A DNA stretch of 64,000 bases from an uncultured Clostridia bacterium. GTDB taxonomy: Bacteria > Aerophobota > Aerophobia > Aerophobales > AE-B3A. Shown here in pieces: positions 32,429 to 53,977 of this stretch (position 1 is the first letter of the stretch; each line of letters opens with the position of its first letter). The notes below the pieces were generated by a model, which was given only the letters and a program-made list of their open reading frames with translations, was not told the DNA's origin and did not search any database. The translations under genes were made by a program, and so were the position numbers. The stretch lies in NCBI GenBank assembly GCA_964543295.1, contig CAZIXA010000008.1, positions 4,764 through 68,763 of the forward strand. The letters run 5' to 3'.

Positions 32429-33367
32429 ATGAAGATGTTTGTTACTGGAGGGGCGGGATTTATAGGCTCCCATGTTGTAGATGCGTTGATACAGAGAGGT
32501 AACAAAGTTATTGTTTATGACAATCTTAGTTCTGGCAAGAAAGACTTTATGAGTCAGCATTTTGGCAGAAGAGAATTTAAATTTATCCAGGCGGATCTTT
32601 CAGACATAGAAAAACTAAAAAATGTAATGAGAGGTTGTGAATGCATTTTTCACTTTGCTTCCAATCCTGATATAGCCAGAAGCATGGTAGAAACAGATCT
32701 AGACTTACGAGAAGGTACTATCCTGACCTACAATGTCCTTGAGGCAATGAGAGTTAATAATGTGAGAAAGATACTCTATTCTTCTGGAAGTGGAGTTTAT
32801 GGAGATGTTGGGGCTGTAGCTATTCCAGAGGATTACGGCCCCTTACTTCCCATATCTATGTATGGGGCAAGTAAACTAGCATGTGAGGGAATGGTAAGTG
32901 CTTTTTGTCATATGTTCAATATGCAGGCGTGGATATTTAGATTTGCCAATGTCGTAGGAGCTCGGCAAACTCATGGCGTTTGCCTTGATTTTATAAGAAA
33001 ACTAAAGAAAAATCCCCAACAATTAGAAATCCTCGGTGACGGTACTCAGTCCAAATCCTATATCTATGTGAGAGATTGCCTGGAGGCGATGTTGTTCATT
33101 ATGCAGGAAGCTAATGAAAAAGTTAATATTTATAACGTTGCCACTGATGATTATCTAGATGTAACCTATATAGCTAATATAGTGATTGAGGAAATGGGCT
33201 TGAACAGTGTGCAATATAAATATACCGGCAGTGATAGAGGTTGGAAGGGAGATGTTCCCCTGGTAAGGTTTAATTTGAATAAGGTCCATAAATTAGGCTG
33301 GAAAGCTAGATATACATCTTCTGAGGCGGTACGTCTTTCTGTGAAAGAGATATTAAGATTGGATTAA
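32429..33367 (+). CDS. NAD-dependent sugar-nucleotide epimerase/dehydratase (SDR)
   Basis: GGAGFIGSH Rossmann, YGASK (YxxxK). Confidence 0.75.
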   Translation: MKMFVTGGAGFIGSHVVDALIQRGNKVIVYDNLSSGKKDFMSQHFGRREFKFIQADLSDIEKLKNVMRGCECIFHFASNPDIARSMVETDLDLREGTILTYNVLEAMRVNNVRKILYSSGSGVYGDVGAVAIPEDYGPLLPISMYGASKLACEGMVSAFCHMFNMQAWIFRFANVVGARQTHGVCLDFIRKLKKNPQQLEILGDGTQSKSYIYVRDCLEAMLFIMQEANEKVNIYNVATDDYLDVTYIANIVIEEMGLNSVQYKYTGSDRGWKGDVPLVRFNLNKVHKLGWKARYTSSEAVRLSVKEILRLD

Positions 33368-33370
33368 GAT

Positions 33371-34078
33371 ATGCAGGTCGTGATACTTGCAGGGGGATTA
33401 GCTACAAGATTAAGACCTTTAACGGAAAGAGTTCCCAAATCTATGATTCGCATAAATGAGAAACCTTTTCTTGAGTATCAAATCGAACTTCTTAAGAAGA
33501 ATAGAATTACTAATGTTCTTCTTTGCACTGGTCACTTAGGTAGCCAGATTAAAGATTATTTTGTTGATGGGGAAAAATTTGGGGTGAGGTTAGAGTATAG
33601 CGAGGAAAAAGAGGAGCTATTAGGCACGGGAGGAGCTTTAAAAAAAGCGAAAAATCTTCTTGAGGATGAGTTCTTTGTTATGTACGGGGACTCCTACCTC
33701 ATCCTTGATTATCAAGAAATAGCCGGCTATTTTCATAAGTTTAATAAACTAGGCTTAATGGTAGTTTACAAGAACTATAATGAATTTGATAAAAGTAACG
33801 TAGTGGTCAAAAATGGATTTGTCAAACTCTATGACAAAAGAGATTCAAGCCCTGAAATGATCTATATAGATGAAGGGATTTCTATCTTAAGAAAGGAGAT
33901 TCTGTCTGATTTTCCCTCCCATACTCCCTTTCTTCTCGATAAAATCTTTCAAAGGCTTATATCAAAAGGAGAGCTTTTGGCTTTCGAGACTAAACAGCGT
34001 TTCTTTGAAATAGGTTCTTCAGAAGGGTTGAGTGATTTCAAAAAACTAATATTGAAAAAGGAGGGCATTCCTGGATGA
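33371..34078 (+). CDS. hddC: D-glycero-alpha-D-manno-heptose 1-phosphate guanylyltransferase-like nucleotidyltransferase
   Basis: VVILAGGLATRLRPLT N-terminus; context with hddA/gmhA/gmhB. Confidence 0.6.
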   Translation: MQVVILAGGLATRLRPLTERVPKSMIRINEKPFLEYQIELLKKNRITNVLLCTGHLGSQIKDYFVDGEKFGVRLEYSEEKEELLGTGGALKKAKNLLEDEFFVMYGDSYLILDYQEIAGYFHKFNKLGLMVVYKNYNEFDKSNVVVKNGFVKLYDKRDSSPEMIYIDEGISILRKEILSDFPSHTPFLLDKIFQRLISKGELLAFETKQRFFEIGSSEGLSDFKKLILKKEGIPG

Positions 34079-35058
34079 TTATAACCAGAACGCCGGTGAG
34101 GATTTCTCTGGGTGGTGGGGGGACAGATCTAGCCTCTTATTATTCTAAACACGGAGGCTTTTTGGTTGCCGTAGCTATAGATAAGCATATTTTTGTCACG
34201 GTTAACAAGCGATTTGAGGATAGTTTTCGCATCAGCTACTCAAAGACTGAGATTGTAGATAACATTAAGGAGATACGACATCCCATTGTCAGGGAAGGAT
34301 TAAGATTACTTGACTATGAGAGAGGACTGGAGATAACTACCATTGCCGATGTTCCGGCCAATACCGGCCTGGGAACCTCTAGCAGTTTTACCGTTGGCCT
34401 ACTGAATGCTTTGCATACCTATAAGAGGGAATCTATCACTATGAAGGCTTTAGCCGAAGAGGCCTGTAAGATTGAAATAGATATTTTAAAAGAGCCCATA
34501 GGAAAACAAGACCAGTATATGGCTGCCTTTGGTGGAATCGTCTGCCTTACTTTTGATAAGAATGGTGAGGTTACAGTGACGCCCCTGAATATCTCTCCTG
34601 ATACCATAGATGAATTAGAAAGACATATTATGCTCTTTTATACCGGTATCAGAAGAAATACTGCGGATGTTCTTTCCGAACAGAATAAAGCAAGCGAAAA
34701 AGACGATAGAAAAGTAATAGACTGCCTGCACGGGATTAAGAAGATTGGAGAAGAAGTCAAGGTAGCCTTAGAATCTGGCAATGTGCGTCGGTTTGGCGAG
34801 CTCTTGGATCTTCACTGGCAGACCAAGAAAAACATATCTAATAAAGTGAGCAGACCTGAGATTGATAAATGGTATGCCTTAGCCAGGGAGAACGGCGCTC
34901 TGGGAGGAAAGATTATGGGTGCCGGGGGAGGGGGATTTTTTATGTTCTACGTAGAGGACGATAAAAATAGACTCAGGCAGGCTATGAAACGAGAGGACTT
35001 AAGGGAGATGCGGTTTAAGTTTGATTTGGAGGGATCGAAAGTATTGGTCAATTTCTAG
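34075..35058 (+). CDS. hddA: GHMP kinase, D-glycero-D-manno-heptose 7-phosphate kinase-like
   Basis: RTPVRISLGGGGTDL, GLGTSSS GHMP motif. Confidence 0.65.
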   Translation: MIITRTPVRISLGGGGTDLASYYSKHGGFLVAVAIDKHIFVTVNKRFEDSFRISYSKTEIVDNIKEIRHPIVREGLRLLDYERGLEITTIADVPANTGLGTSSSFTVGLLNALHTYKRESITMKALAEEACKIEIDILKEPIGKQDQYMAAFGGIVCLTFDKNGEVTVTPLNISPDTIDELERHIMLFYTGIRRNTADVLSEQNKASEKDDRKVIDCLHGIKKIGEEVKVALESGNVRRFGELLDLHWQTKKNISNKVSRPEIDKWYALARENGALGGKIMGAGGGGFFMFYVEDDKNRLRQAMKREDLREMRFKFDLEGSKVLVNF

Positions 35059-35072
35059 TCTGGAGGTGGAAA

Positions 35073-35690
35073 ATGGGAAAAAAGGTCAAGGATTATATTG
35101 ATGAGTATTTTTCCAAGATGAATAATTTAATACGGGAAATGCCTGAGGATAAAATTGAGGAAGCGATTGAAACTTTATACAATGCCTGGGAGAAAAATGC
35201 TCAGATATTCATTATGGGAAATGGAGGTTCTGCTTCCACAGCCTCGCACTTTACCTGTGATCTGGCTAAGGGGACAATTGTGGAAGATAAAAAGCGATTC
35301 AAGGTGATTAGTTTAGTAGATAATATTCCTCTTGTTAGCTCCTGGACAAATGATAGCGGATTTGGTTCCATTTTTGCGGAACTGCTTAGACCCTGGCTCA
35401 AAGAAGGCGATGTTCTTATAGGTGTGTCCGTGCATGGAGGCTCTGGCAAAGGTGAGGCTGGACCCTGGTCACAGAATCTGGTAAAAGCTATGAATTTAGC
35501 TAAAAAAAGAAAGGCAAAGATTATTGGTTTCAGTGGCTTTGGTGGTGGAGCAATGAAAGAGATGGCTGATATTTGTATCACCATACCCATTAATTCTGAG
35601 CCCTTAGGGACACCTCTGGTGGAGTCCTTTCATGTAGTGCTCCATCATTTAGTTTGCTCTGCCCTAAAGCAGAAAATTGAGAATAGCTAA
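35073..35690 (+). CDS. gmhA: SIS-domain phosphoheptose isomerase
   Basis: GNGGSASTASHFTCDL. Confidence 0.7.
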   Translation: MGKKVKDYIDEYFSKMNNLIREMPEDKIEEAIETLYNAWEKNAQIFIMGNGGSASTASHFTCDLAKGTIVEDKKRFKVISLVDNIPLVSSWTNDSGFGSIFAELLRPWLKEGDVLIGVSVHGGSGKGEAGPWSQNLVKAMNLAKKRKAKIIGFSGFGGGAMKEMADICITIPINSEPLGTPLVESFHVVLHHLVCSALKQKIENS

Positions 35691-36283
35691 TGAATAAAGC
35701 AGTATTCCTCGATCGTGATGGTGTAATCAATGCTATGGTTTATGATGCCGATTATGGATTTGTTGATTCACCAACCAATCCAGATCAGTTTAAACTTTTA
35801 CCCAGAGTAGGTGAGGCAATTAAGCGCATCAATGAAATGGGATTTCTGGCTCTAGTCATCTCCAATCAGCCCGGCATTGCCAAGGGTAAATTCACCCTTA
35901 AAATATTAGAAGCAATGGATAAAAAGATGAAAGAGGAACTGGCCCGATATGGTGCTCACCTGGATAAAATATATTATTGCCTCGATTATCCAGAGGCTAT
36001 TATAAAAGAATATAAAAAGAATTCTCCTTATCGCAAGCCAGAGCCAGGATTGCTGTTGAAAGCAGCCGAGGAGTTCAAGATAGATCTAAGATCTTCTTAT
36101 ATGATTGGTGACGGGCTCATTGATGTTCAGGCAGGAAAGAGGGCTGGGTGTGAGACTATTCTTTTAGGAAGACTAAAGTGTGATTTATGTAAATTGATGG
36201 AAGACCTAAAGGCAAAGCCAAGCTTTATTGTGCCCAATTTGGCCAAAGCAGTGAAATTAATAGAAAAACTGGAAGGAGAATGA
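35690..36283 (+). CDS. gmhB: HAD-family D,D-heptose 1,7-bisphosphate phosphatase
   Basis: FLDRDGVIN motif I, isnqpg..kg, GDGLIDVQAG. Confidence 0.65.
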   Translation: MNKAVFLDRDGVINAMVYDADYGFVDSPTNPDQFKLLPRVGEAIKRINEMGFLALVISNQPGIAKGKFTLKILEAMDKKMKEELARYGAHLDKIYYCLDYPEAIIKEYKKNSPYRKPEPGLLLKAAEEFKIDLRSSYMIGDGLIDVQAGKRAGCETILLGRLKCDLCKLMEDLKAKPSFIVPNLAKAVKLIEKLEGE

Positions 36284-36284
36284 G

Positions 36285-37019
36285 GTGAAGATATTTATTG
36301 ACAGCGCAGATCTAAAAGAGATAGAAAAGTATCTTTCCTGGGGTATTTGTGATGGGGTAACAACCAACCCTACTATTTGCTTAAAATGTGGAGTCACTGG
36401 AGGAACGAAGGGAATAAAAAAAAGAACAATAGAAATTGCTAAGATGATTCATCCTCGTCCGGTAAGTGCTGAGGTAACCAATGATAAAGTTGAAGAAATC
36501 ATTTCTCAAGCTACAGAATATAGCAGGTGGGCGGAGAACATCGCGGTAAAAGTTACCATCACTGATAGACAAGGTAACTCTCTTTTGCGTGCCATTTATG
36601 AGTTAGTTAGCCAGGGAGTGCGGGTTAATGTGACCACAATGACAACTTTTAATCAGGCAATTTTGGCCGCCAAAGTAATTAAAGCAGGCCAGGAAAAGAA
36701 TCCAGGGGTAAAAAATCCAAATTTTATTAGTATTTTTGCCGGACGGATTTCGGAAGAACATGGTGTGGAACAAGCTATGCGAGTGCTAAAAAATACTCGG
36801 GAATGGCTAGATTTTCATAAGTTCGAGGGAATAGAAATTATTGTTGGTTCTGTAAGGAGCCGGGAGAATGTAGAATTATGGTCTCGAAGTGGAGCGCATA
36901 TTCTCACCATACCTCCTCAGGTAATTTCTCAATGTCTTCTAGCCGCCCGAACCAAAGAGACTGTAGATCAGTTTTTAACCGATGCCCAAAGAGCACTGGA
37001 AGGACTAAGGGACAGATAA
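36285..37019 (+). CDS. transaldolase/fructose-6-phosphate aldolase family protein (sedoheptulose-7-P supply)
   Basis: MKIFIDSADLKEIEK..DGVTTNPT signature. Confidence 0.6.
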   Translation: MKIFIDSADLKEIEKYLSWGICDGVTTNPTICLKCGVTGGTKGIKKRTIEIAKMIHPRPVSAEVTNDKVEEIISQATEYSRWAENIAVKVTITDRQGNSLLRAIYELVSQGVRVNVTTMTTFNQAILAAKVIKAGQEKNPGVKNPNFISIFAGRISEEHGVEQAMRVLKNTREWLDFHKFEGIEIIVGSVRSRENVELWSRSGAHILTIPPQVISQCLLAARTKETVDQFLTDAQRALEGLRDR

Positions 37020-37024
37020 GTTTT

Positions 37025-38314
37025 ATGAAGATAGGAATATTAGGAGGAGGACTGACAGGGCTAACCATAGCCCTCCACCTTCAAACTGATTTCGACGTTT
37101 TAGAGAAAAATGAGGAGTGTGGTGGTCTATGTAGGAGTATGCAGGAAGAAGGTTTTACCTTCGATTATGGAGGAGCTCATATTATCTTTTCTAGAAATAG
37201 AGAGCCCATCGATTTTATGGTAAAGACACTCGATGGGAATTGTGTCCGAGGGAGAAGAAATAATAAGATTTTTTTCAAAGGTAGATATATCAACTATCCT
37301 TTTGAAAATGGCTTATCAGATCTACCCAAAGAGGACAACTTTGAATGTCTTTATTACTATCTAAAGAATGACTCACCCCAACCTACTAACTTCAAGGAAT
37401 GGCTTTACTATACATTTGGGAAAGGAATCGCCGAAAAATATCTCATCCCCTATAATGAGAAGATCTGGAATTATCCTGTAGAAAAGATGAGTCTTCATTG
37501 GGTCGAAGGAAGAGTCCCTAAGCCTCCCTTAGAAGATGTAATCAAATCAGCTATTGGAATTAAGACAGAAGGCTACAAGCATCAACTCTATTTTTACTAT
37601 CCTGAATATGGGGGGATACAGGCCTTAATTAAAGCTATGGGAAATAAAATTTCCCATAATATTCTTAAGAATTTTGAGATTAAGAAAATAAGAAAAATAG
37701 GTAAAAAATGGATAGTTTGTACCGGCAAAGAGGAAAGAGAGTATGATAAATTAGTCTCCACAGTTCCCATTTTTGATTTGATTAGATCTTTAAATAATGT
37801 GCCCGAAGAGGTAGAAAACGCACTAAGCAAGCTAAGGTATAACTCATTAATAACAGTTATGATCGGTTTGGATGTGAATAACCTGTCAGATTTTACTGCT
37901 ATGTATTTTCGAGATGCAAAAGTTAAATTTCACCGTGTTGGATTCCCTAAGTGCTTTAGCCAACGTAATGTCCCTCCAAAAAAATCTTCATTATTAGCGG
38001 AAATTACCTCAAATCCAGGAGATAGAATCTGGGAATTGAGTAACAAAGAAATTATTGATGATGTTATTGAAGAGCTTCATAACCTAAATATAATTAACAG
38101 AAATACACTGTGCTACTCCAAAGCGATGAGATCAAAATATGCCTATGTGGTGTATGATCTGGATTATTCCAGGAACATTAAGATAATCAAGGACTACGTA
38201 GCTAAACAAGGCATTATCTTATGTGGTCGATTTGCTGAGTTCGAGTATCTAAATATGGATGCTTGTGTGGAGAGAGGACTGGAAATTGCTAAGTTGATGC
38301 ACAAGTCTATGTAG
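37025..38314 (+). CDS. glf: UDP-galactopyranose mutase
   Basis: MKIGILGGGLTGLTIA FAD fold; start at ATG 37025, not the upstream in-frame 36878 of the ORF track. Confidence 0.65.
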   Translation: MKIGILGGGLTGLTIALHLQTDFDVLEKNEECGGLCRSMQEEGFTFDYGGAHIIFSRNREPIDFMVKTLDGNCVRGRRNNKIFFKGRYINYPFENGLSDLPKEDNFECLYYYLKNDSPQPTNFKEWLYYTFGKGIAEKYLIPYNEKIWNYPVEKMSLHWVEGRVPKPPLEDVIKSAIGIKTEGYKHQLYFYYPEYGGIQALIKAMGNKISHNILKNFEIKKIRKIGKKWIVCTGKEEREYDKLVSTVPIFDLIRSLNNVPEEVENALSKLRYNSLITVMIGLDVNNLSDFTAMYFRDAKVKFHRVGFPKCFSQRNVPPKKSSLLAEITSNPGDRIWELSNKEIIDDVIEELHNLNIINRNTLCYSKAMRSKYAYVVYDLDYSRNIKIIKDYVAKQGIILCGRFAEFEYLNMDACVERGLEIAKLMHKSM

Positions 38315-38320
38315 GGACAC

Positions 38321-39583
38321 GTGAATATACAAAGCAGAGCATTTAAAAATTTCGTTTCTCTTCTTGTTGGTCAAGTAATAAGTCGTATATTTACTTTTTT
38401 TGTTGTTATTTATTTGGCTCGTGTTTTAGGAGCAGCAAATTTTGGAAAGATTGGTTTTGCACAGACAATTCTCGCATATTTTGGGGTAATTGCCAACTTA
38501 GGTACAATGACTATAGGCACGCGAGAAATAGCACAAAATAGAGAAAGGATAAATGAGTATGTTAATACCATAACCTCACTACGTTTAATGCTAGCAACAT
38601 TATCTTTCTTGTCTCTCCTTATATTTGTTGCTTTAATTCCAAAGCCCACCGAGATCAGACACTTAATTATTCTTTATGGACTCTCTTTATTTCCATTTTC
38701 CTTACTTCTTGAATGGTTATTTCAAGGTATTGAGACTATGGAATTTATCTCGCTTTCTCGGATTTTAAGTCAGTTTTTCTATTTTGCTTTGGTTTTTCTA
38801 TTAGTAAAAAATGCTGGTCAATTACAAGTGGTTCCAGTTTCATGGCTAATAGGAAATTTGATAGCCTGCGGATTTCTTCTTTATATCTTTAACAAGCGAT
38901 CCAATAAGATAAAATTAGAAATTGATTTCCTCTTCTGGAAGAAATTTTTAAAACATGCCATTCCAATAGGTATATCACTAATTCTGGTGCAAATTTATCA
39001 TGGTTTTGACATAATTATGTTAGGATTCTTGAAAGGAGATAAGGCTGTAGGAGTATATAATGCTCCTTGGAAGTTATTTTCCTTAGCTATGCAAGGTGGA
39101 GGTCTAGTTACAGTGGTGGCTTTTCCTATGCTTTCAAGTTATTATCGAGGTAATCAAGACGATTTTAGAAATGTTTGGAACAGATATAGAAATATTTCTT
39201 TTTTTTTTGGGGCAATGGGATTAATAGTAGGAACATTTTTTGCTGAACCAATCATTTTGTTTTTATATGGAAGAGAATATATTGGAAGTATTTGGCCTTT
39301 TAGAATATTATCATGGGCTTTTGCTGTATTGTGTATAAATGGCCCGTACGGTCAACCTTTACTGGTAGCAAAATATGAAAAGACAATTTTGCTTATAACA
39401 TTAATTACTGCTATAACAAATGTTTTGGCGAATATAGTTATGGTACCCCATTGGGGGGCAGTTGGAGCAGCTATAGCATATTTTATAACGCAAGTTATGG
39501 CAACTAGTTGGGTTATATTTTATTTTTATAGAAAGGCTATACTGCCCAAAGAACTTAGTTATACAAAAAATAGGGGATTTTAG
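38321..39583 (+). CDS. wzx: Wzx-like polysaccharide flippase (MOP superfamily)
   Basis: 420 aa, ~12 TM. Confidence 0.6.
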   Translation: MNIQSRAFKNFVSLLVGQVISRIFTFFVVIYLARVLGAANFGKIGFAQTILAYFGVIANLGTMTIGTREIAQNRERINEYVNTITSLRLMLATLSFLSLLIFVALIPKPTEIRHLIILYGLSLFPFSLLLEWLFQGIETMEFISLSRILSQFFYFALVFLLVKNAGQLQVVPVSWLIGNLIACGFLLYIFNKRSNKIKLEIDFLFWKKFLKHAIPIGISLILVQIYHGFDIIMLGFLKGDKAVGVYNAPWKLFSLAMQGGGLVTVVAFPMLSSYYRGNQDDFRNVWNRYRNISFFFGAMGLIVGTFFAEPIILFLYGREYIGSIWPFRILSWAFAVLCINGPYGQPLLVAKYEKTILLITLITAITNVLANIVMVPHWGAVGAAIAYFITQVMATSWVIFYFYRKAILPKELSYTKNRGF

Positions 39584-40611
39584 TGTTTAGTTGCTATAAA
39601 TCATTAATATCAACTGATGCTATTTGTTCCATTTGTAATAAGATAAGCCGCAGGCATCTAGTGGATCAAAGAGGTGAATATAAAATATATAAGTGTAGCC
39701 AATGTAAAGGAGTATATAGTGTTCCCATGAAGGCACTAAGTCCTGAGGAATATGAAAAGTGCTATACTAAAGGGGATGAGGTTCTCAATAACTACAGGAG
39801 ACTTATTTCGCTTTCTCCCGAGCTAGCAATTAATAGAGCTAGAAATTATAAAACTTGTCAGTTATTGATGAATTTTCTAAAAGAAATTTCCCAAGATAAT
39901 ATACCTAAAACATTATTAGATATTGGATGTGGAACGGGGATATTTCTTTATTTAGCTAAGGAAATGGAGTTTGAAGTATATGGGATAGACCAAGCAAAAG
40001 AAGCAGTTCATTATGCTAAAGAACGATTGGGCTTAACAAACGTTATACTAGGAGGTGTTGGTAGTATTTTGTCTCAATGGAGAAGCAAATTTGATGTTAT
40101 AACATGTATACAAATTCTAGAACATGTGGAAAATCCTCGAAAGTTCATTTCTGATATTTCCGAACTTCTTGCACCTGGTGGTGCTTTAATAATAGCTGTA
40201 CCTAATTATAATAGATTAAAGTTGACGAAACAAATGTGGGATTGTCCGCCACACCACTTGACTAGATGGAGTGCAAACAATCTGGAACTTTTTCTCCGCA
40301 ATCAGGGTTTTGATAAAGTGGTTATAAAAACTACTGCCGTTGATCCTGAATTTCTCTGGTCTGTTTTAATACCCTTTTCATTCCCGAAACGTTGCCGAGA
40401 ATTTATCAAAGAAAAAGAATACGGGATACATAAGCAAATTGCAGATTTATCGGACTCCACTTCGGAAAGAATCCCTGCACTATTAATCAAGTTTCTTGTC
40501 AATCTACCTCGCAATGCTTGTAAGAGAATTATATATATAATTTCCATTTTATTTAAGCCATTCTTTAAAAAACGAGGATTTGATATTGTAGCCTGTGCCC
40601 AGAAAGACTAA
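39583..40611 (+). CDS. zinc-ribbon + class I SAM-dependent methyltransferase
   Basis: CSICNK..CSQCKG; LLDIGCGTGIF motif I. Confidence 0.6.
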   Translation: MFSCYKSLISTDAICSICNKISRRHLVDQRGEYKIYKCSQCKGVYSVPMKALSPEEYEKCYTKGDEVLNNYRRLISLSPELAINRARNYKTCQLLMNFLKEISQDNIPKTLLDIGCGTGIFLYLAKEMEFEVYGIDQAKEAVHYAKERLGLTNVILGGVGSILSQWRSKFDVITCIQILEHVENPRKFISDISELLAPGGALIIAVPNYNRLKLTKQMWDCPPHHLTRWSANNLELFLRNQGFDKVVIKTTAVDPEFLWSVLIPFSFPKRCREFIKEKEYGIHKQIADLSDSTSERIPALLIKFLVNLPRNACKRIIYIISILFKPFFKKRGFDIVACAQKD

Positions 40612-40620
40612 CTAAAATAC

Positions 40621-42024: not shown

Positions 42025-42027
42025 AAA

Positions 42028-43113: not shown

Positions 43114-43119
43114 GCCGGG

Positions 43120-44602: not shown

Positions 44603-44668
44603 AAAAACTTAATGGCTACATTTCGGAAAAACTTATGAATATTTATTTAAGAAAACCGGTTTAGAATA

Positions 44669-46728: not shown

Positions 46729-46759
46729 AACAAGAGATATTGCATAAGAGTAATAGAGA

Positions 46760-48157
46760 ATGGTTGACAACATTATTCTAATTTTGTTTCTTTCCACGCT
46801 CGGTATTTCCTTTGCGGCTATTATTCTTACGCACTGGGATTGGATGCCAGTAATGCTGCTGCCAATTCTGTGGTATATGCCGCGACAAACAGCTTCAGGC
46901 GGTCTATTAGAAAATTATCTAATTCTAAGGTGGACAACCGTTTTTATTATACCTTTAATTATCTTTATCCAATTTATTAAAGTGACTGAAAAGTCGCAAT
47001 CTCTGAAACTAAGTAATATTGCATTACCTTTAGGAATATTTATAGTTTTTTCTGTTTGTTCAGCAATTTTCAATAATGTTACACCTTTTGAGCTCTTAGG
47101 AAGTTTAATTCTATATATCAGATATCCATTGCTCTTTATTGCTTTTATTAACATGGACATTCCAAAGAACGTTGTGAAAGTTTTTTCTCGGCTCTTTTTA
47201 TTTCTTGTCGCAATACAAATTCCTGAATGTATTTATCGCTATGCAGTATTAGGCGTTAAATGGGATCATATTTCATGGACAATGGGACCATGGGGTACTT
47301 TAGACCTCGGGGTTTACATGATTTATGCAGTTGCCTTGGTTATCGCATTTAGTCTTACAAAAGGACTCAAATGGAGCCATTTTGCACTTTTCGCTCTTTT
47401 CTTTATGATAGCTTTGCTCGGTGAGATCAAAGCGTTCATTTTTTCGGCTCCAGTTGTTTCTGTATTTACTGTTTATGCTGTGTTACAACAAAAACAAGTA
47501 CCAAATCAAAAACAAGGATCAAAGCGTCTACTTGCAGTATTATTACCAGTGTTTTTTTTAATTTTGTTCTATTGTTGTACCTCTGGTATCTGGGAAAAAA
47601 TCCACTATGGTAGCAGCAATACTCTTACATCCTCCCTGCAAAATCTTCTAGCGATTCTTAAGCATCCGTTATCGTTTGTACAGAGCGATGAAATGGCCTA
47701 TTCTATGCCTAGAATTAGTGGCGGTGTATTTATTTGGAACTACTTGAGAAAAGACTGGCATATGTTAATGTTTGGTTTAGGTTCAGGTAGTGCACTTGCT
47801 GGTACTTTTTTGGGAAGGCCCGGAAAACTATTTGAAATGTTAGACAGTTCTCCCCTGTATTTAAATCAAATAGGGGCAATTTTAGCAGAAGTGGGCATAA
47901 TAGGATTATCTCTTTATTTCTGGATGTTAATAAGGCTATTACGCACGATACTGAGAGCGAACATCTCAATTGAAGATACTAATCTACGCATCCTTTGTGC
48001 AAGTTTAGTTGGTATGTGGGTTTTCTATGCCGTTCTCGGTCCTTTCTATGATTTAGTTTGGCGACACGATGCTCCCAACTACATTTTCTACTTTTTTGCC
48101 GCAGTTATATATAATTATTTGCAAAATAAACATACATTTTTAAGTCATCCAAAATAA
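46760..48157 (+). CDS. Wzy-like O-antigen/oligosaccharide polymerase (polytopic membrane protein)
   Basis: 465 aa, >10 TM, large loop; locus context. Confidence 0.45.
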   Translation: MVDNIILILFLSTLGISFAAIILTHWDWMPVMLLPILWYMPRQTASGGLLENYLILRWTTVFIIPLIIFIQFIKVTEKSQSLKLSNIALPLGIFIVFSVCSAIFNNVTPFELLGSLILYIRYPLLFIAFINMDIPKNVVKVFSRLFLFLVAIQIPECIYRYAVLGVKWDHISWTMGPWGTLDLGVYMIYAVALVIAFSLTKGLKWSHFALFALFFMIALLGEIKAFIFSAPVVSVFTVYAVLQQKQVPNQKQGSKRLLAVLLPVFFLILFYCCTSGIWEKIHYGSSNTLTSSLQNLLAILKHPLSFVQSDEMAYSMPRISGGVFIWNYLRKDWHMLMFGLGSGSALAGTFLGRPGKLFEMLDSSPLYLNQIGAILAEVGIIGLSLYFWMLIRLLRTILRANISIEDTNLRILCASLVGMWVFYAVLGPFYDLVWRHDAPNYIFYFFAAVIYNYLQNKHTFLSHPK

Positions 48158-48206: not shown

Positions 48207-49448
48207 ATGATAGTGAATATTCTCCTGGTTAACAAATTTTTTTATCTTAGAGGTGGTAGTGAGAGAGTATTTCTTGAGGAAGCAGATTTACTGAAAAGGA
48301 ATAGGCATCAGGTAGCTTTCTTTTCTATGTTTGATAAAAGAAATTTATCTTGTCCTCAAAGTAAGTACTTTATTGACCATATAGACTATGAAACACCTGT
48401 AAAAAATATTAAACCTAAAATCTTACAGAGTCTGAAAATGCTTTATTCTTTTGAAGCAAAGGAGAAAATAGAGGAACTACTAAATGATTATCAAATAGAT
48501 ATTGCTCATCTGCATAATATCCATCACCAAATATCTCCATCAATTTTAGATGTGTTTGTAAAATATAAGGTGCCAACTGTAATGACGTTACACGATTATA
48601 AATTAGTTTGTCCTTCATACTCTATGCTTACGGACGGAAAACCTTGCGAGAAGTGCAAGAATGGAAAGTATTTTTGGTGCTTTCTTAAAAAGTGCACCAA
48701 GGATTCTTATGCGAAAAGTTTACTTAACGTAGTAGAAATGTACCTGCATCATAAAATTCTTCACATTTACGACAAAATAGATGTTTTTATCTCTCCAAGC
48801 ATATTTTTGAAGAAAAAACTAAAAGAAGTGGGATTTAAAAAAGAGATAGTTCATTTGCCTAATTTTATTAATGCAAAAGATTATTTGCCAAAGTACAGCT
48901 TCAATGAGAAGATAATTTGCTATTTTGGAAGACTTTCGGAAGAAAAAGGGCTTTTTACACTGCTTGAAGCGGTGAAAGGAATAGATATAAAATTAAAAAT
49001 TGTTGGTGATGGGCCAATAAAAGAAAATTTAAAGTTTAAAGTGAAAAGTGAAAAATTAGATAATGTTGACTTTTTAGGATATAAATCAGGGAGAGAATTG
49101 GAAAATGAAATCAAACGCTCTATGACGGTAGTTCTTCCTTCTGAATGTTATGAAAATAATCCCAGGATAGTTTTAGAAGCGTTTGTATTAGGTAAACCAG
49201 TGATTGGTTCAAAAATTGGCGGTATTCCAGAATTGGTGCAGGATGGGAAGACGGGCTTAACTTTTGAGCCAAGAAACATAAGTGATTTAAGAAATAAGAT
49301 TGAGTATTTGGTGAACAGTCCCGATAAAATAAGTAAAATGGGAAAAAATGCAAGAAAATTTGTTGAAAAAAATTTTAACCCAGAAAAACATTATCAAGAA
49401 TTAATGAGAATTTATCAAATGGCGATGGAGAAATACAGATGGAGTTAA
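48207..49448 (+). CDS. glycosyltransferase family 4
   Basis: ECYENNPRIVLEAFVLGKPVIGSKIGGIPE. Confidence 0.7.
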   Translation: MIVNILLVNKFFYLRGGSERVFLEEADLLKRNRHQVAFFSMFDKRNLSCPQSKYFIDHIDYETPVKNIKPKILQSLKMLYSFEAKEKIEELLNDYQIDIAHLHNIHHQISPSILDVFVKYKVPTVMTLHDYKLVCPSYSMLTDGKPCEKCKNGKYFWCFLKKCTKDSYAKSLLNVVEMYLHHKILHIYDKIDVFISPSIFLKKKLKEVGFKKEIVHLPNFINAKDYLPKYSFNEKIICYFGRLSEEKGLFTLLEAVKGIDIKLKIVGDGPIKENLKFKVKSEKLDNVDFLGYKSGRELENEIKRSMTVVLPSECYENNPRIVLEAFVLGKPVIGSKIGGIPELVQDGKTGLTFEPRNISDLRNKIEYLVNSPDKISKMGKNARKFVEKNFNPEKHYQELMRIYQMAMEKYRWS

Positions 49449-49963
49449 TGGATAAGCAAGAAAGAGAGCGATTATTCAAACAAGAATTAGCCCGCATTAT
49501 TGATAGCGTTATTAACCAACGCAAGCCTAAAAATAATACCTTTGGTTTACTGGCTAAGGGGAAAATAAATGAGTGGAGCGATATAACCTTCTTATGATTA
49601 AAGATAGCTCGAAAAGGCAAGTCGATAGATGTGTGGAAGTAGCGGAACTAACAGGCCCAAAAGTTGGAGTAGGTCTTTTCATATATAGCCGACGGAATAC
49701 GAAATTCCTTTAAACGAGAGATTTTCTTTTCTGCTAAGTATTTTAAAAGACGGAAGAGCTTTATATGAGAAAGGACGTTGGAGTATGGCTTAAACATTGC
49801 TAAATAATACTTGTACAAGTCCAAGGTTTATTTGTACGATGTGTCCTATTAAAAATTATGGCACTGGCCCGATGGATTAAATTGTAAGCGGCAATAATTA
49901 CGACCTATAGATGTACGAATAATTGCGGAATTCATATTTATATATGAGGGGCCAAGACAAGAG

Positions 49964-50974
49964 ATGAAAAATATAGTCCAAGGAAGTCTTATTGTAACTT
50001 ATAGGTGTAATGCTAAATGTCAGATGTGCGAAATATGGAGACATCCAACAAAGCCATCTGAAGAGTTACACCCCAAATACTATGAAAAATTACCTTCAGG
50101 TTTGCGAATTAATATCACAGGTGGCGAACCTATGTTAAGAGATGATATTGAGGAGATTTTTGGAATTCTTTACCCCCACGCATATCTTTTGGAATTAAGT
50201 ACAAATGGTTATTTTACAGATAGAATAATACATCTTGCTGAGAAATATCCGAATATTCTAATCCGTGTGAGTGTTGAAGGATTACCAGGGCTTAATGATA
50301 AATTACGAGGTATTCCAAATGGTTTTGACCATGCCCTCAGGACAATTTTAGAATTGAAAAAGACCAAGTGCAAAAATATTGGTTTTTCTATTGTAATTTC
50401 GCCACAAAATGTATATGACCTTCTCCCTCTATATGAATTGTGTTGCTATTTAGGAATAGAACTGGGAAATTCAGCAATGCATAACTCATGGTATTTTCAC
50501 AAAGCGGATAATGTAATAGCAGGTGATAAAAAAGCATGGGAAATAGAAGCTGAATTTATAAAGGTACTTCTACGGTCGCCTCGTAGAGGGACAAAAAATA
50601 AGTTGAAAGACTATGCTCGAGCATACTTTAATCTAAGTATCTTGAAAAGGTTACGCGGTGACCCACGGGGTTATCGTCCACCATGTGGAGCAGGAACGGA
50701 CTTCTTTTTTGTTGACCCCTTTGGAAACATTACTCCTTGTAATGGTTCGGATGAGGAATGGATAATGGGTAACCTAAGGGATAATTCTTTTGAAAATATT
50801 ATGAATTCGGAAAGAGCTAAAGAAGCAATGAAGAAAGTCAAATCGTGTGAAAAGGAATGCTGTTTTGTTGTTACTGAGCGGCATGATATGGTTCGTAACC
50901 TCTGGAAGCCAATTTACTGGATTACGAAAAACAAAATCAAATTAGGATTAAAAATCCTGAGGGATTTTAGCTAA
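49964..50974 (+). CDS. radical SAM enzyme with C-terminal Cys-rich SPASM/twitch-like domain
   Basis: CNAKCQMC (Cx3Cx2C); C-terminal CGAG..C..C...C. Confidence 0.65.
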   Translation: MKNIVQGSLIVTYRCNAKCQMCEIWRHPTKPSEELHPKYYEKLPSGLRINITGGEPMLRDDIEEIFGILYPHAYLLELSTNGYFTDRIIHLAEKYPNILIRVSVEGLPGLNDKLRGIPNGFDHALRTILELKKTKCKNIGFSIVISPQNVYDLLPLYELCCYLGIELGNSAMHNSWYFHKADNVIAGDKKAWEIEAEFIKVLLRSPRRGTKNKLKDYARAYFNLSILKRLRGDPRGYRPPCGAGTDFFFVDPFGNITPCNGSDEEWIMGNLRDNSFENIMNSERAKEAMKKVKSCEKECCFVVTERHDMVRNLWKPIYWITKNKIKLGLKILRDFS

Positions 50975-50975
50975 T

Positions 50976-52091
50976 ATGGAAATTAATGTCGTTGGTATAA
51001 GAGGTTTTCCCAATATTCAAGGCGGTGCAGAAAAGCATTGTGAGGAGCTTTACCCTCGTTTAGTTAAGTTAGGATGTAATATTACGGTTTTTAGCCGAAC
51101 TCCTTATTTTACGAAGGAAAAGAGTTTAAGAAAATGGAAGGGTGTGAAATTTGTTTATCTCTGGTGTCCTAGAACTAAAAGTCTCGAAGCCGTCATGCAC
51201 ACACTTTTAGCTTCTCTGATTTGTATATTTAAGCGTCCTGATATTGTTCATATACATAATATTGGTCCTGGAATATTAATACCATTGTTAAAAATGGCCA
51301 AACTTAAGGTAGTGTTGACATATCATAGCGTCAACTACGAACATCAGAAATGGAGTGAATTTGCCAAAATTGTTTTGAAGATGAGTGAATTTGTAAGTAT
51401 GAAATTTGCCGATAAAATCATAGTGATTTCCAAAGCGATAAAGAACTTGCTGACAAATAAATATAACAGAGAAGATTTAGAATTAATTTTTAATGGCGTA
51501 AATTTTCCAGAAAAGATTTCAACCACAGAGATTCTGGAAAAATACTACCTTTCATCTCGCCAATATGTATTTACCGCTGCTCGTTTTGTGCCTGAAAAGG
51601 GACTGCATGACCTAATTGGTGCCTATCAGGAGATCAAAAATCCAGAATTTAAGTTAGTCATAGCTGGCGACGCTGACCATGAAACTATATATAGCAGAAA
51701 AATCAAGGCATTAGCAAAGAAGAGTGAAAAGATTATTCTTACCGGGTTTATTTCTGGCAATCCCCTCACTGAGCTTTTTTCAAATGCTGGTTTGTTCGTT
51801 TTACCCTCATATTATGAAGGATTACCAATAGCATTATTGGAAGCTTTAAGTTATGGCCTTCCAGTGCTTATAAGTGATATTCCTGCCAACAAGGAAATGC
51901 CTTTACCTGAATTTAGGTTTTTCCCGGTTGGGAATATAGATAAACTATCTAAAAAAATGACTGAGTTATTCAAATCTGGGATTCCTGAAGAAGAAAGACA
52001 AAGGCAGCAAGAAGTGCTTGTACGAGACTATAATTGGAATAAGATAGCAAAACAAACATTTAAGGTTTATGAAAAAGTGCAAAAGAGTTAG
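50976..52091 (+). CDS. glycosyltransferase family 4
   Basis: YYEGLPIALLEALSYGLPVLISDI. Confidence 0.7.
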   Translation: MEINVVGIRGFPNIQGGAEKHCEELYPRLVKLGCNITVFSRTPYFTKEKSLRKWKGVKFVYLWCPRTKSLEAVMHTLLASLICIFKRPDIVHIHNIGPGILIPLLKMAKLKVVLTYHSVNYEHQKWSEFAKIVLKMSEFVSMKFADKIIVISKAIKNLLTNKYNREDLELIFNGVNFPEKISTTEILEKYYLSSRQYVFTAARFVPEKGLHDLIGAYQEIKNPEFKLVIAGDADHETIYSRKIKALAKKSEKIILTGFISGNPLTELFSNAGLFVLPSYYEGLPIALLEALSYGLPVLISDIPANKEMPLPEFRFFPVGNIDKLSKKMTELFKSGIPEEERQRQQEVLVRDYNWNKIAKQTFKVYEKVQKS

Positions 52092-52158
52092 GAACTGCCG
52101 AAAAAGAGTAAGACTATTTTTTTTCTCTGGTTGGTCAGGAAAGAATTGATAAAGAAAT

Positions 52159-52217
52159 GGTTCAATTAGTTCGATTGGTTCAACTGGTTCTATTAGTTTG
52201 AGTGGTTTAATTGGGTG
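52159..52217. repeat. 9-bp tandem repeat (GGTTCAATT-like, ~6.5 units)
   Basis: ggttcaatt agttcgatt ggttcaact ggttctatt agtttgagt ggtttaatt gggtgg. Confidence 0.6.
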
Positions 52218-52519
52218 GAAGAGGCTACACAATGTTTAGAAAGGCGGTATGTTTAGTTTCTTTAATTGCTTTTTACGTTGCTGCTTTATTCTCATCCCTC
52301 TTTTTGGCCTACATAATCAGAGAAGAGATTCTTTTTTATATTCATCCTGCTTTCAGAATGACAACCTTTCCCTTTGAGACCTACCTGGTAAACTATCCTT
52401 ACTTTCTCGGTCTCTGGGTGGTGATTCTTGCTTATGAGAGCCTTTGTACCAAAAGATTTATCCTGGGAGAGGGAAAAGAGGATCAAAGAATTAAGAAGCA
52501 AAACAAAAAGCAGGATTAG
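52211..52519 (+). CDS. small membrane protein
   Basis: 102 aa, 2-3 TM. Confidence 0.3.
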   Translation: MGGRGYTMFRKAVCLVSLIAFYVAALFSSLFLAYIIREEILFYIHPAFRMTTFPFETYLVNYPYFLGLWVVILAYESLCTKRFILGEGKEDQRIKKQNKKQD

Positions 52520-52527
52520 AGGATTAA
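52507..52527. repeat. RAGGATTA octamer pair immediately upstream of wbaP start
   Basis: gcaggattagaggattaaag. Confidence 0.5.
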
Positions 52528-52531
52528 AGAG

Positions 52532-53977
52532 ATGAAGATACCCAAAAGTAAAAGAAGAATTAGGTTGCTTTATTTAGCTGTTGATTTTTTCTTTATCTTC
52601 CTTTGCTTTTGGTCTTTTTACTTTTACCGTTATTTTAAGGGGAATTTTTGGGATGGGGTTAAGTATTTCTTTTCCCCTCAGTTTAATTCCCTTCCCTTAT
52701 TTAATGAGTACCTCAGCTTATTTTTCTTCCTTTGTATTACCATTTTTTTCTCCCTTCAAAATTACGGGCTTTATGGAACAACGCGGGGACGTTCACTGAC
52801 CAATGAGGTATTTTGCGTCTTTAAAGCAGTTGCCTTTTCGAGTATGTTGAGTATCGCCCTTGTCTTTATAGCCAAATTTCACGGCGTTTCTCGCTTAGTA
52901 TTTTTTCAATTCGTCCTCTCCATAGCATTTTTTCTCTCCATCTGGCGAGTTCTTAAACGCTGGTATGTAGAAGATTTGGTAGCCTCGGGTTATAACAATC
53001 AAAATGTTTTAATCGTTGGAGCAGGGCAAGCAGGCAAGTCCTTAGCTCAGGAGTTGTCTAAGCAACAGCATCTAGGATTAAAAGTCATAGGTTTTTTAGA
53101 CGATCATAGAAAAACTGAAGAGCATACATCCAAAGGAAAAATATTAGGAAAGACGAGCGAGTTAGAAAGAATTGTTAATGAAAAATTTATTGATCAGGTC
53201 TCTATTACTTTTCCCCTACAGAGGGGATTAGCAAATAAAATAATATCCCAGGCAAGAAAGTTAGGAGTGGGAGTGAAGATAATACCCGAGTATTTTGAAA
53301 ACTCTACCAGTAGACTTGATATTAGTTATATAGGTAGGATTCCCCTTCTTGAATATTATGGTAAGCCTGAATTAGAAGCGGAATTGATGATCAAACGACT
53401 TATAGATATAGTTTTTTCTTTTGTGGGATTGTTGATTCTTTCACCACTTTTTATAGCAATAGCTATCTTAATTAAATTGGACAGTCCAGGGCCGATATTT
53501 TATGTTTCCCCTCGAATAGGAAGAAAAGGAAAAATATTTAAGTTTTACAAGTTTCGTTCAATGTATGCCGGTGCGGAAAAGGATTTAGATAAATTATCAG
53601 AGAGGAATGAAAAAGACGGACCTATTTTTAAGATGGAAAATGACCCTCGTGAAACTAAAATAGGAAGATTTATAAGAAAATATAGCATAGATGAGTTGTC
53701 ACAGCTATGGAATGTGTTAAAAGGGGATATGAGTCTGGTGGGACCAAGGCCTCCTACTCCTTCGGAAATAGACCGCTATAAAGATTGGGAATTAAAAAGG
53801 GTAAATGTAATTCCTGGTATGACCTCTCCATATGTAATTCAAGGGAGAAGCAATTTATCCTTCGGGGAATGGGTGAGGTCGGATCTTGATTATATTGAAA
53901 ACTGGTCCTTAGGGTTGGATTTAAAGATTTTATTAAAAACGGTGCCGGCGATAATAAAAGGGGAAGGAGCATACTAA
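52532..53977 (+). CDS. wbaP: WbaP/CpsE-type undecaprenyl-phosphate hexose-1-phosphate transferase (initiating PGT)
   Basis: 481 aa; N-terminal TMs, CoA-binding-like middle domain, bacterial sugar transferase C-domain (DLSQLWNVLKGDMSLVGPRP). Confidence 0.75.
   Translation: MKIPKSKRRIRLLYLAVDFFFIFLCFWSFYFYRYFKGNFWDGVKYFFSPQFNSLPLFNEYLSLFFFLCITIFFSLQNYGLYGTTRGRSLTNEVFCVFKAVAFSSMLSIALVFIAKFHGVSRLVFFQFVLSIAFFLSIWRVLKRWYVEDLVASGYNNQNVLIVGAGQAGKSLAQELSKQQHLGLKVIGFLDDHRKTEEHTSKGKILGKTSELERIVNEKFIDQVSITFPLQRGLANKIISQARKLGVGVKIIPEYFENSTSRLDISYIGRIPLLEYYGKPELEAELMIKRLIDIVFSFVGLLILSPLFIAIAILIKLDSPGPIFYVSPRIGRKGKIFKFYKFRSMYAGAEKDLDKLSERNEKDGPIFKMENDPRETKIGRFIRKYSIDELSQLWNVLKGDMSLVGPRPPTPSEIDRYKDWELKRVNVIPGMTSPYVIQGRSNLSFGEWVRSDLDYIENWSLGLDLKILLKTVPAIIKGEGAY

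Follow-up and report, generated by a model that had tools for sequence, protein, structure and literature searches.

The window analysed here, a stretch of 64,000 nucleotides from contig CAZIXA010000008.1 of an uncultured bacterium, carries a glycan locus at positions 32429-53977. The ORF map, together with Pfam and NCBIfam scans, defined this region as a single co-directional block on the + strand. A preliminary description, made from the sequence alone, had read it as a Wzx/Wzy-type locus in which a heptose pathway and a Glf enzyme supply a methylated heptose/galactofuranose polymer, and every gene in its inventory was found on the + strand where it had been placed. The block would divide into three modules. 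Module 1 (32429-38314) would be a seven-gene sugar-nucleotide cassette. Module 2 (38321-48157), which is variable, would contribute a Wzx flippase, three glycosyltransferases, a Wzy-like polymerase and three methyltransferases, while the GT4-radical SAM/SPASM-GT4-glycosylphosphotransferase block of module 3 (48207-53977) would start the repeat unit on undecaprenyl phosphate. The locus overall is an ordinary kind of system; its sugar cassette is a new variant, widespread in uncultured lineages.

Four cassette genes encode members of the enzyme families that make GDP-heptose. The best NCBIfam model for the sugar-1-phosphate nucleotidyltransferase (33371-34078; Pfam NTP_transferase) was HddC at 117 bits, compared to 113 bits for MurU, both under their cut-offs, and the HddC structure 5XHW ranked third among its PDB matches (73 bits). 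The kinase encoded at 34075-35058 belongs to the GHMP family, and its best NCBIfam model was HddA, D-glycero-D-manno-heptose 7-phosphate 1-kinase (191 bits, under the 600-bit equivalog cut-off). In the PDB it matched the HddA/WcbL chains 3K85, 4N3O and 4USK at 153-160 bits, compared to at most 75 bits for fucokinase and at most 63 bits for galactokinase. Since the kinase groups with HddA, and no grouping with GalK was seen, the HddA reading stands. A kinase of the GHMP type implies an alpha-anomer and a GDP-activated product. The two remaining members are a GmhA-like sedoheptulose-7-phosphate isomerase (35073-35690; Pfam SIS_2), for which the gmhA model of NCBIfam scored best at 89 bits but under its cut-off, and a GmhB-like heptose 1,7-bisphosphate 7-phosphatase of the HAD-IIIA type (35690-36283), which scored just under the cut-offs of both PRK08942 (143 bits) and TIGR00213 (132 bits). 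Scores under the equivalog cut-offs make these four enzymes distant members of their families. At the family level, best models and kinase grouping support the GmhA/HddA/GmhB/HddC route to GDP-heptose that had been proposed. The reading as a Wzx/Wzy-type glycan locus is supported as well.

The cassette also includes a short transaldolase (36285-37019; Pfam TAL_FSA, 128 bits). Aligned to 1VPX of T. maritima and 3S0C of T. acidophilum, it contained an extra segment of ~12 residues and exhibited D6, the E of PVSAEV, the K of AVKV and the F of SIFAGR. From the TacTal and fructose-6-phosphate aldolase (FSA) literature, we take this Asp/Glu/Lys/Phe pattern, with its Schiff-base Lys and Glu/Phe pair, to be that of a transaldolase, and a Gln/Tyr pattern to be that of FSA. 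An aldolase of the FSA type was ruled out by the Glu/Phe pattern found in place of Gln/Tyr.

The leading gene of the cassette encodes a short-chain dehydrogenase/reductase (SDR; 32429-33367), which we predict to be a GDP-heptose 4-epimerase. Its best PDB matches were 3EHE of A. fulgidus (340 bits), PhGal4E_1 of P. horikoshii (8RDG/8RDH, 297 bits), and 3ICP (231 bits) and 3AW9 (211 bits) of P. calidifontis, with the next class reaching no more than 127 bits. These same entries were grouped by Alvarez Quispe et al. (PMC12171764) into a GDP-sugar 4-epimerase (GDP-Gal4E) subgroup with a preference for GDP-sugars. The window SDR keeps the subgroup residues P80, Y145/K149, N174 and H182, with the loop-R arginine, R83, shifted by one position, and to judge by sequence it is a member of this subgroup. 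Whereas the known members are archaeal and have been studied in isolation as promiscuous biocatalysts, the window gene lies inside a heptose cassette. Membership of the SDR in a GDP-sugar 4-epimerase subgroup makes GDP-heptofuranose the most likely product of the pathway, and UDP-galactofuranose a less likely one.

The seventh cassette gene (37025-38314) encodes a flavoenzyme that resembles UDP-galactopyranose mutase (UGM) and is predicted to be a GDP-heptopyranose/furanose mutase. Although the ORF list opens this frame at 36878, within the transaldolase gene, translation truly begins with MKIGILGGG at 37025, as in the gene call on the source contig. The name Glf given to it in the preliminary description was correct insofar as the protein is a homologue of UGM, specifically of the eukaryotic type. 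It is not, however, a classical bacterial Glf, as it failed to match Pfam GLF (PF03275) and scored only 29 bits against the NCBIfam UDP-GALP_mutase model (TIGR00031), for which the cut-off is 304. The only Pfam matches were to Amino_oxidase and NAD_binding_8. In the PDB, the only strong relatives were eukaryotic UGMs, namely those of T. cruzi (4DSG, E 1.9e-35) and A. fumigatus. An AlphaFold (AF2) model, built on 26 homologues with a pLDDT of 92.2, predicts the FAD Rossmann, helical and beta-sheet domains of the UGM fold. The top 34 Foldseek matches to this model were all eukaryotic-type UGM chains (TM 0.86-0.89, E down to 4e-37), followed by protoporphyrinogen oxidases (PPOs; TM ~0.8, E 1e-28), which were 15% identical to the flavoprotein compared to 22-27% for the UGMs.

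Residues characteristic of UGM were retained throughout the family. H52, R78, Y143, N144, W148, R163, Y294, R304, E326, R402, Y408 and N410 were kept in an alignment of 83 family members, nearly all of them without exception, and alignment to A. fumigatus UGM (AfUGM) indicated that F55 and the C-terminal GRF..Y.NM motif are kept as well. Active-site residues were mapped through the PDB alignment from the table of van Straaten et al. (PMC3322874). Of those in the table, His63, Arg182, Arg327, Tyr317 and Glu373 correspond to H52, R163, R304, Y294 and E326, and Arg447, Tyr453 and Asn457 correspond by motif comparison, rather than by a printed alignment, to R402, Y408 and N410; each of the eight is kept in 79-83 of the 83 members. 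Compared to the eukaryotic UGMs of A. fumigatus (3UTE) and T. cruzi (4DSG), the window flavoprotein is alike in fold, in its histidine loop and in the equivalents of Phe66, Arg91, Arg182, Arg327, Tyr317 and Glu373, but it is ~80 residues shorter and spaces the C-terminal Y-x-N-M as prokaryotic enzymes do. Taken together, sequence and model indicate that the flavoprotein is very probably a flavin-dependent pyranose/furanose mutase, although not obviously one for UDP-galactose. Its family is large, with more than 4787 close matches in a set of 5.8 billion proteins and 6473 clusters at 50% identity. Source records give its members no names more specific than 'protoporphyrinogen oxidase' or 'FAD-dependent oxidoreductase'.

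In contrast to the catalytic residues, the contacts that AfUGM makes to its substrate through Gln107, Phe158, Asn207 and Trp315 were not kept, their counterparts in the window flavoprotein being E94, Y139, Q187 and A292. As described by van Straaten et al. (PMC3322874), Gln107 of AfUGM hydrogen-bonds uracil, Phe158 is an entry in the active-site table (Table 2), Asn207 lies within 3.5 Å of galactose O4 and the face of Trp315 lies within 4.5 Å of galactose C6. Gln107 is replaced by Glu94, a Glu that is invariant in the 83 family members; Phe158 is replaced by Tyr139, the flap residues Pro206/Asn207 by His186/Gln187, and Trp315 by Ala292. Position 292 divides the family, with Ala in 48 members and Trp in 35. 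All 36 genes linked to the cassette have Ala at this position, while all 35 Trp-type genes lack the cassette. Exceptions with respect to taxonomy obeyed the same rule: a Methanosarcinales archaeon (L044) combines Ala with the cassette, and a Syntrophorhabdus bacterium (L068) has Trp and no cassette. Because Trp315 of AfUGM packs against galactose C6, a small residue at position 292 would suit an enzyme that has to accommodate the additional C7 carbinol carried by a heptose.

The Trp-type branch is found in methanogens, relatives of ANME, DPANN, Bathyarchaeia and Hadarchaeota. These genes were without heptose genes, and their products keep a WLYFP motif that archaeal Trp-type members share with eukaryotic UGMs. 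Archaeal loci of this type include L008, L009, L014, L026, L028, L045, L073 and L075-L077, some of them pairing the gene with a GT4 glycosyltransferase, and in L045 and L077 an SDR of the same type as that in the window stands beside it. The Trp-type branch may account for furanose hexoses in archaea and may represent the nearest prokaryotic kin of eukaryotic UGM.

For comparison across genomes, one genome per GTDB species was scanned with the flavoprotein, giving 80 loci (45 bacterial and 35 archaeal) that were then searched with the proteins of the window. Within the available flanks, two or more heptose genes lay near the flavoprotein gene in 32 of the 45 bacterial loci, compared to 1 of the 35 archaeal loci (Fisher 9e-11). 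The window SDR had a close homologue (43-56% identical) in 32 bacterial loci, and a transaldolase was present in 27. The transaldolase gene, which had been put forward as dedicated to the heptose pathway, indeed lies outside housekeeping synteny. In 28 of the 80 loci, 27 of them bacterial and one archaeal, it accompanies heptose genes; it belongs to the cassette rather than to the housekeeping genes. Carriers of the cassette include Dehalococcoidia, Anaerolineales, Rokubacteria, many Bryobacterales, Thermoanaerobaculia, Saganbacteria, Chlamydiota and one Methanosarcinales genome. Gene order took at least six forms, always with all cassette genes on the strand of the mutase gene, and in a neighbour-joining tree the window flavoprotein fell inside a bacterial clade of cassette carriers. 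The closest metagenome relatives of the flavoprotein, P0002 (84% identical) and P0006 (68%), both have the full cassette. In the 84% relative, cassette proteins were 81-91% identical to those of the window, compared to 28-42% for the glycosyltransferase region, an identity profile that is that of a conserved sugar cassette beside a variable serotype region.

One locus joins the mutase to the heptose pathway in a single polypeptide. At 187-2259 of L089 (JGI metagenome 3300037141), the best representative match, P0242, is an uninterrupted ORF of 690 amino acids (aa) that encodes a full HddC-like enzyme, a 16-residue linker and a UGM-like domain; an HddA gene directly precedes it and a GT2 glycosyltransferase gene comes next. 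The UGM-like domain is 53% identical to the window flavoprotein, and the HddC part 42% identical to the window nucleotidyltransferase. The HddC-like gene also adjoins HddA in many of the comparative loci, and this genomic context supports the HddC assignment of 33371-34078. A candidate for a second HddC-mutase fusion, P0294, was rejected: its HddC part ends without the conserved ERFYEIGS motif, as if frameshifted, in a record truncated on both sides. In a record of 729 aa (P0263), a UGM-like enzyme is fused to a C-terminal GT2 glycosyltransferase, which hints at a furanose donor channelled straight to its transferase.

We propose that the cassette applies the logic of GalE followed by Glf, shifted from a UDP-hexose to a GDP-heptose. 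The transaldolase would supply sedoheptulose-7-phosphate, which GmhA would isomerise to D-glycero-D-manno-heptose-7-phosphate; HddA would then make the alpha-1,7-bisphosphate and GmhB would remove the 7-phosphate. Following activation to the GDP-sugar, the SDR of the GDP-Gal4E type would invert C4, giving what is formally a talo-heptose (D-glycero-D-talo), and the UGM-like enzyme, with reduced flavin, would contract the ring to yield GDP-heptofuranose. From this sequence evidence, the predicted product of the cassette is most likely GDP-heptofuranose. Gene content, homology, synteny, fusion and residue patterns were computed directly; from them we infer the order of the SDR and mutase steps, the nucleotide, the stereochemistry of the sugar, the targets of methylation and the polymer itself. 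Weighing these data, we lean slightly towards the view that the window encodes a Wzx/Wzy-dependent heteropolysaccharide (capsule or exopolysaccharide) locus of a diderm bacterium that is equipped with a GDP-heptofuranose cassette. With a confidence that falls a little short of even, we further propose that the flavoprotein family constitutes a large, unannotated prokaryotic sister family of eukaryotic UGM, whose Ala-type members together with the epimerase, the transaldolase and GmhA/HddA/GmhB/HddC make up a mobile seven-gene cassette for GDP-heptofuranose. As part of this joint proposal, the family would divide at the residue equivalent to AfUGM position 315, Trp marking hexose mutases and Ala heptose mutases.

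Galactofuranose (Galf), the product put forward in the preliminary description, is not the best reading of these data. It would require the flavoprotein to be a UDP-galactopyranose mutase and the SDR a UDP-glucose 4-epimerase, with the polymer containing Galf alongside a pyranosidic D-glycero-D-manno-heptose. The closest solved structures of the flavoprotein are indeed all UDP-galactopyranose mutases and the catalytic residues are kept; moreover, epimerases of the PhGal4E_1 type also turn over UDP-glucose, and SDR and UGM-like genes are paired in archaeal loci without heptose genes (L045 and L077). However, the mutase homologue is tied to heptose genes, its fusion partner is HddC and not a UDP-sugar enzyme, and its Ala/Trp switch tracks the heptose genes. 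The pocket differs as well: the uracil-binding Gln107 has become an invariant Glu, and Pro206/Asn207 of the flap near galactose O4 have become His/Gln. The SDR likewise belongs to a different subgroup, its nearest characterised relatives preferring GDP-sugars. Finally, the cassette is kept as a set, although shuffled, in at least seven lineages without a shared glycosyltransferase that would define a common glycan of Galf and heptose. We therefore regard Galf as an unlikely product, if one that retains some weight.

Two further explanations assign other roles to the SDR or the flavoprotein. The mutase might act directly on GDP-manno-heptose, with the SDR editing the heptose otherwise, for instance by C6 epimerisation as in HldD or by oxidation/reduction towards a deoxy or otherwise epimeric heptose, to give a different heptofuranose in a different order of steps. 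Synteny and fusion agree with this scheme as well as they do with C4 inversion, the SDR weakly matches a heptose 6-epimerase model (89 bits) and dehydratase models, and the SDRs of C. jejuni make many different edits to GDP-heptose (PMC10680097). The scores of 340 and 297 bits against GDP-Gal4E structures are nonetheless far above those of other classes, P80, N174 and H182 of the subgroup are kept, and Pfam and NCBIfam scans revealed neither a 3,5-epimerase (cupin) nor a second reductase in the cassette, leaving direct action on the manno-heptose rather improbable. Alternatively, the flavoprotein may be no mutase at all and may instead act in redox chemistry as a member of the amine-oxidase/protoporphyrinogen-oxidase superfamily, perhaps oxidising a sugar or a sugar nucleotide. 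That Pfam finds only Amino_oxidase and NAD_binding_8, that homologues are named 'protoporphyrinogen oxidase' in their sources and that PPOs are the next-best structural matches (TM ~0.8) would all fit such an enzyme. Against this, the catalytic and phosphate-binding residues specific to UGM (the histidine loop, the two arginines, the tyrosines and GRF...Y.NM) are all kept, and UGMs match better than PPOs by ~8 orders of magnitude and at 22-27% versus 15% identity. A redox function would thus come as a considerable surprise.

Several observations weigh against a GDP-heptofuranose cassette. Twelve Ala-type genes were without heptose genes in the available DNA, and three of these (L007, L034 and L043) were so despite full 10-kb flanks. 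Prokaryotic UGMs that use galactose also have a small residue at the position of Trp315, as listed in Table 2 of van Straaten et al. (PMC3322874). The replacement of Gln by Glu is family-wide and so says nothing specific about heptose; its tie to guanine is something we infer. Both the Ala/Trp correlation and the co-occurrence counts ignore phylogeny, and many of the loci are from related Bryobacterales. The evidence from fusion comprises one clean HddC fusion only, every cassette enzyme scores under its NCBIfam equivalog cut-off, and sequence alone does not separate the HddC-like enzyme from those of the MurU type (117 versus 113 bits). GDP-Gal4E enzymes are promiscuous and accept UDP-glucose as well (PMC12171764), and the open-access literature that we searched yielded no precedent for a talo-heptofuranose.

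Module 2 opens with a Wzx flippase (38321-39583; Pfam Polysacc_synt, 133 bits; ~10 transmembrane segments). The five glycosyltransferase genes of the GT4 or GT2 type claimed in the preliminary description were all found. Three of them lie in this module: GT4 a (40621-42024; Glycos_transf_1, Glyco_transf_4), a GT2 (43120-44139; Glycos_transf_2, 85 bits) and GT4 b (44669-45742; Glyco_trans_1_4, Glycos_transf_1). The other two, GT4 c (48207-49448; Glycos_transf_1, 125 bits) and GT4 d (50976-52091; Glycos_transf_1, 104 bits), belong to module 3. The candidate for a Wzy-like polymerase is a 465-aa protein (46760-48157) with ~10-11 hydrophobic segments and a long loop at ~280-370; in L082 the corresponding position is taken by a Wzy_C protein. 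Between the GT2 and GT4 b genes lies a small hydrophobic ORF of 119 aa (44243-44602) that has 2-3 hydrophobic segments and is called as a gene on the source contig, but may not be one. Neither this ORF nor the 465-aa protein matched Pfam at E values up to 1.

The three methyltransferases each combine an N-terminal Cys4 zinc ribbon with a class I SAM fold, as had been described: methyltransferase 1 (MT1; 39583-40611; Methyltransf_23, 84 bits), MT2 (42028-43113; Methyltransf_11, 82 bits) and MT3 (45736-46728; Methyltransf_23, 96 bits). A CxxC-(19-26)-CxxC pattern was present in all three, formed by C15/C18/C38/C41 of MT1, C11/C14/C38/C41 of MT2 and C9/C12/C39/C42 of MT3, and these cysteines are kept in orthologues from other loci. 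The ribbon of MT2 is Trm112-like, matching Pfam Trm112p at 33 bits, above the cut-off. Identities of only 23-36% among the three proteins indicate that they are not recent duplicates. MT2 would be the methyltransferase most closely tied to the mutase; in five further loci (L002, L004, L005, L006 and L082) an orthologue directly adjoins the UGM-like gene, which makes MT2 the best candidate for methylation of the heptose. PDB searches with MT2 and MT3 returned generic class I methyltransferases only, and as a result no acceptor can be proposed from homology. Judged from their domains, the three enzymes probably O-methylate sugars. The suggestion that the polymer contains methylated sugars is therefore plausible with respect to the methyltransferases, but it does not extend to the radical SAM enzyme that was thought to contribute, which is without methylase architecture.

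The radical SAM/SPASM enzyme (49964-50974; CNAKCQMC motif) contains only the Pfam domains Radical_SAM and SPASM. Pfam and NCBIfam scans identified no accessory domain of the class A (RlmN/Cfr), class B (cobalamin-binding) or class C (HemN-like) methylases. Among NCBIfam models, those for SPASM maturases and heme enzymes scored best but stayed far below their cut-offs, and PDB matches, to SkfB and to the sugar-acting decarboxylase BlsE, were weak. Proteins 65-85% identical to it occur in KSB1, Atribacteria, Aminicenantes, Omnitrophota, Desulfobacteraceae, Bacteroidales and Kiritimatiellia, an unusual degree of conservation for so many phyla. In three of three sampled loci (L086, L087 and L088, at ~5750-10550), which come from exopolysaccharide loci of KSB1, Omnitrophota and Desulfobacteraceae, the gene lies between a GT4 of ~410 aa and a DUF1972-type GT4 of ~365 aa. 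This is the arrangement found in the window, where GT4 c is the first and GT4 d, with its DUF1972-type N-terminus, the third gene of the block. Compared to the window, the radical SAM enzymes of these loci were 70-82% identical, GT4 c 45-52% and GT4 d 48-49%. In two of the three, an initiating polyprenyl-phosphate glycosylphosphotransferase (PGT) gene follows within one or two genes, and heptose genes were absent from all three. This conserved setting without heptose genes places the radical SAM enzyme in a separate conserved initiation block, and together with the absence of a methylase-class domain it argues against the role in sugar methylation that had been assigned to it.

A 516-bp non-coding gap (49448-49964) separates GT4 c from the radical SAM gene in the window, whereas in other loci these two genes are only 10-30 bp apart. 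Within the gap lies nothing but an ORF of 52 aa (49439-49597) that belongs to no family and may be the remnant of an insertion. We also considered whether the radical SAM enzyme is a peptide maturase. A precursor was sought in the gap, and only the family-less 52-aa ORF was found; with the radical SAM gene standing directly after the GT4 gene in other loci, this makes a peptide maturase unlikely.

Module 3 ends with the large PGT of the WbaP/WcaJ type (52532-53977; Bac_transf, 217 bits; CoA_binding_3), which scored 428 bits against TIGR03025, above the cut-off, but under the cut-offs of the WbaP and WcaJ models. Upstream of the locus, genes on the + strand encode a YjbH-like exopolysaccharide outer-membrane protein with a signal-like N-terminus (26586-27347; Pfam YjbH, 27.8 bits; one N-terminal hydrophobic segment), two half-size OEP/TolC-like proteins, each with its own N-terminal hydrophobic segment (27669-28346, a weak match at 15 bits, E 0.022; and 28343-29104, an outer-membrane protein matching Pfam OEP at 36.6 bits), and a Wzc-type chain-length regulator and bacterial tyrosine kinase (BY-kinase; 29097-31388; Pfam Wzz, GNVR and AAA_31; two transmembrane segments). 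Pfam also identified a response regulator in this group. The Wzc and OEP/YjbH-like proteins would serve in chain-length control and export. A Wzx/Wzy-type set is thus present, in which PGT, Wzx and Wzc were identified by family and the Wzy candidate by topology and position only. No Wza (Poly_export) match was found among the ORFs scanned between 25961 and 60783; the OEP-like genes, which overlap by 4 nt, occupy the position expected for this exporter.

The locus resembles capsule and exopolysaccharide loci of the group 1/4 Wzx/Wzy type in its large PGT, Wzx, Wzy-like polymerase, several GT4/GT2 genes and upstream Wzc, but differs from them in having two half-size OEP-like proteins and a YjbH-like protein, with no Wza among the scanned ORFs. 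A Wzc BY-kinase is the norm alongside Wzx/Wzy, and the combination is not the unusual one it had been taken for. The preliminary description had further likened the locus to Gram-positive S-layer glycan loci of the Aneurinibacillus type. This likeness holds for the heptose pathway but not for the rest, as OEP-like and YjbH-like proteins and a full-length Wzc flank the locus, and no S-layer or oligosaccharyltransferase gene was seen at it. With a diderm host indicated by the OEP-like and YjbH-like proteins, the analogy is limited to the heptose pathway.

The junction between the Wzc gene and the cassette (31389-32428) contains gene remnants. Two are WecB-like N-terminal fragments, MKVMTIFGTRPE... 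at ~31399 and ...STRPEAIKLAPVIKE at ~32270, and a third is a PAPS-reductase-like fragment at ~31540-31770, where the source contig has a 75-aa PAPS_reduct call. Judged from sequence, this debris suggests that an earlier locus was replaced by recombination. Farther upstream, a stretch resembling a defence island (12612-24634) includes a PDC-S18/S11-like protein with a NucS-like domain (15055-15870), a weakly matching SIR2-like protein (16690-17718), a Type IIG/ISP restriction-modification enzyme of 1038 aa on the minus strand (21518-24634) and several ORFs without a family. Downstream, the stretch 55292-60783 encodes a 1039-aa minus-strand protein with only a faint match to an Ig-like surface domain, a winged-helix protein and a tyrosine integrase (59446-60783), as might be expected if the neighbourhood were mobile or prone to recombination. 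The exact window proteins were found on an unannotated NCBI/Logan contig. As a guide to taxonomy, TrkH gave only Ca. Poribacteria (75%), WOR-3 (68%) and Planctomycetota (67%). The G+C content is 33-38% in the glycosyltransferase part, 38-42% in the cassette and 38-48% over most of the window's upstream half, and GC skew is strongly positive all through the 32000-54000 block.

To our knowledge, heptofuranose has so far been known only from the C. jejuni capsule serotypes HS:10 and HS:41. The HS mutases of C. jejuni are, as far as is known, of the classical bacterial Glf type, whereas the window enzyme lies in another branch, nearest eukaryotic UGM. For the heptofuranoses of the HS:10 and HS:41 capsules, the GDP-6-deoxy-heptopyranose mutases HS10.16 and HS41.15 were predicted but uncharacterised in 2023 (PMC10680097), and HS41.17, a CDP-fucopyranose mutase of C. 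jejuni, has been characterised (PMC12369002). The two systems would be alike in using an FADH2-dependent pyranose/furanose mutase on a sugar nucleotide other than a UDP-sugar, and in placing heptofuranose in a capsule. The substrate in the window, however, would be a 6-hydroxy heptose after 4-epimerisation instead of a 6-deoxy-altro- or 6-deoxy-galacto-heptose. Compared to known GDP-heptose operons, the same four enzyme families (GmhA, HddA, GmhB and, as a candidate, HddC) stand in one operon, but here they are joined by a transaldolase, an SDR of the GDP-Gal4E type and a UGM-like flavoenzyme. Searches of the open-access literature for heptofuranose, furanose mutase, GDP-heptose and eukaryote-like prokaryotic UGM found no account of this seven-gene cassette.

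If the proposal is correct, heptofuranose would be a common surface sugar in uncultured Acidobacteriota, Chloroflexota, Rokubacteria, Saganbacteria, Chlamydiota and others, and bacterial glycobiology would gain a new sugar nucleotide, GDP-heptofuranose, made by GalE/Glf logic. It would also provide a function for thousands of proteins mislabelled as protoporphyrinogen oxidase or FAD-dependent oxidoreductase, and a physiological role for GDP-sugar 4-epimerases, so far studied only as promiscuous biocatalysts. Within the mutase family, Trp versus Ala at a single pocket residue offers a hypothesis for specificity, and the conserved GT4-radical SAM/SPASM-GT4 block suggests that a radical enzyme acts in polysaccharide assembly. 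Lastly, the family would point to the prokaryotic kin of the UGMs of eukaryotes, enzymes that serve as drug targets in fungi and trypanosomatids.

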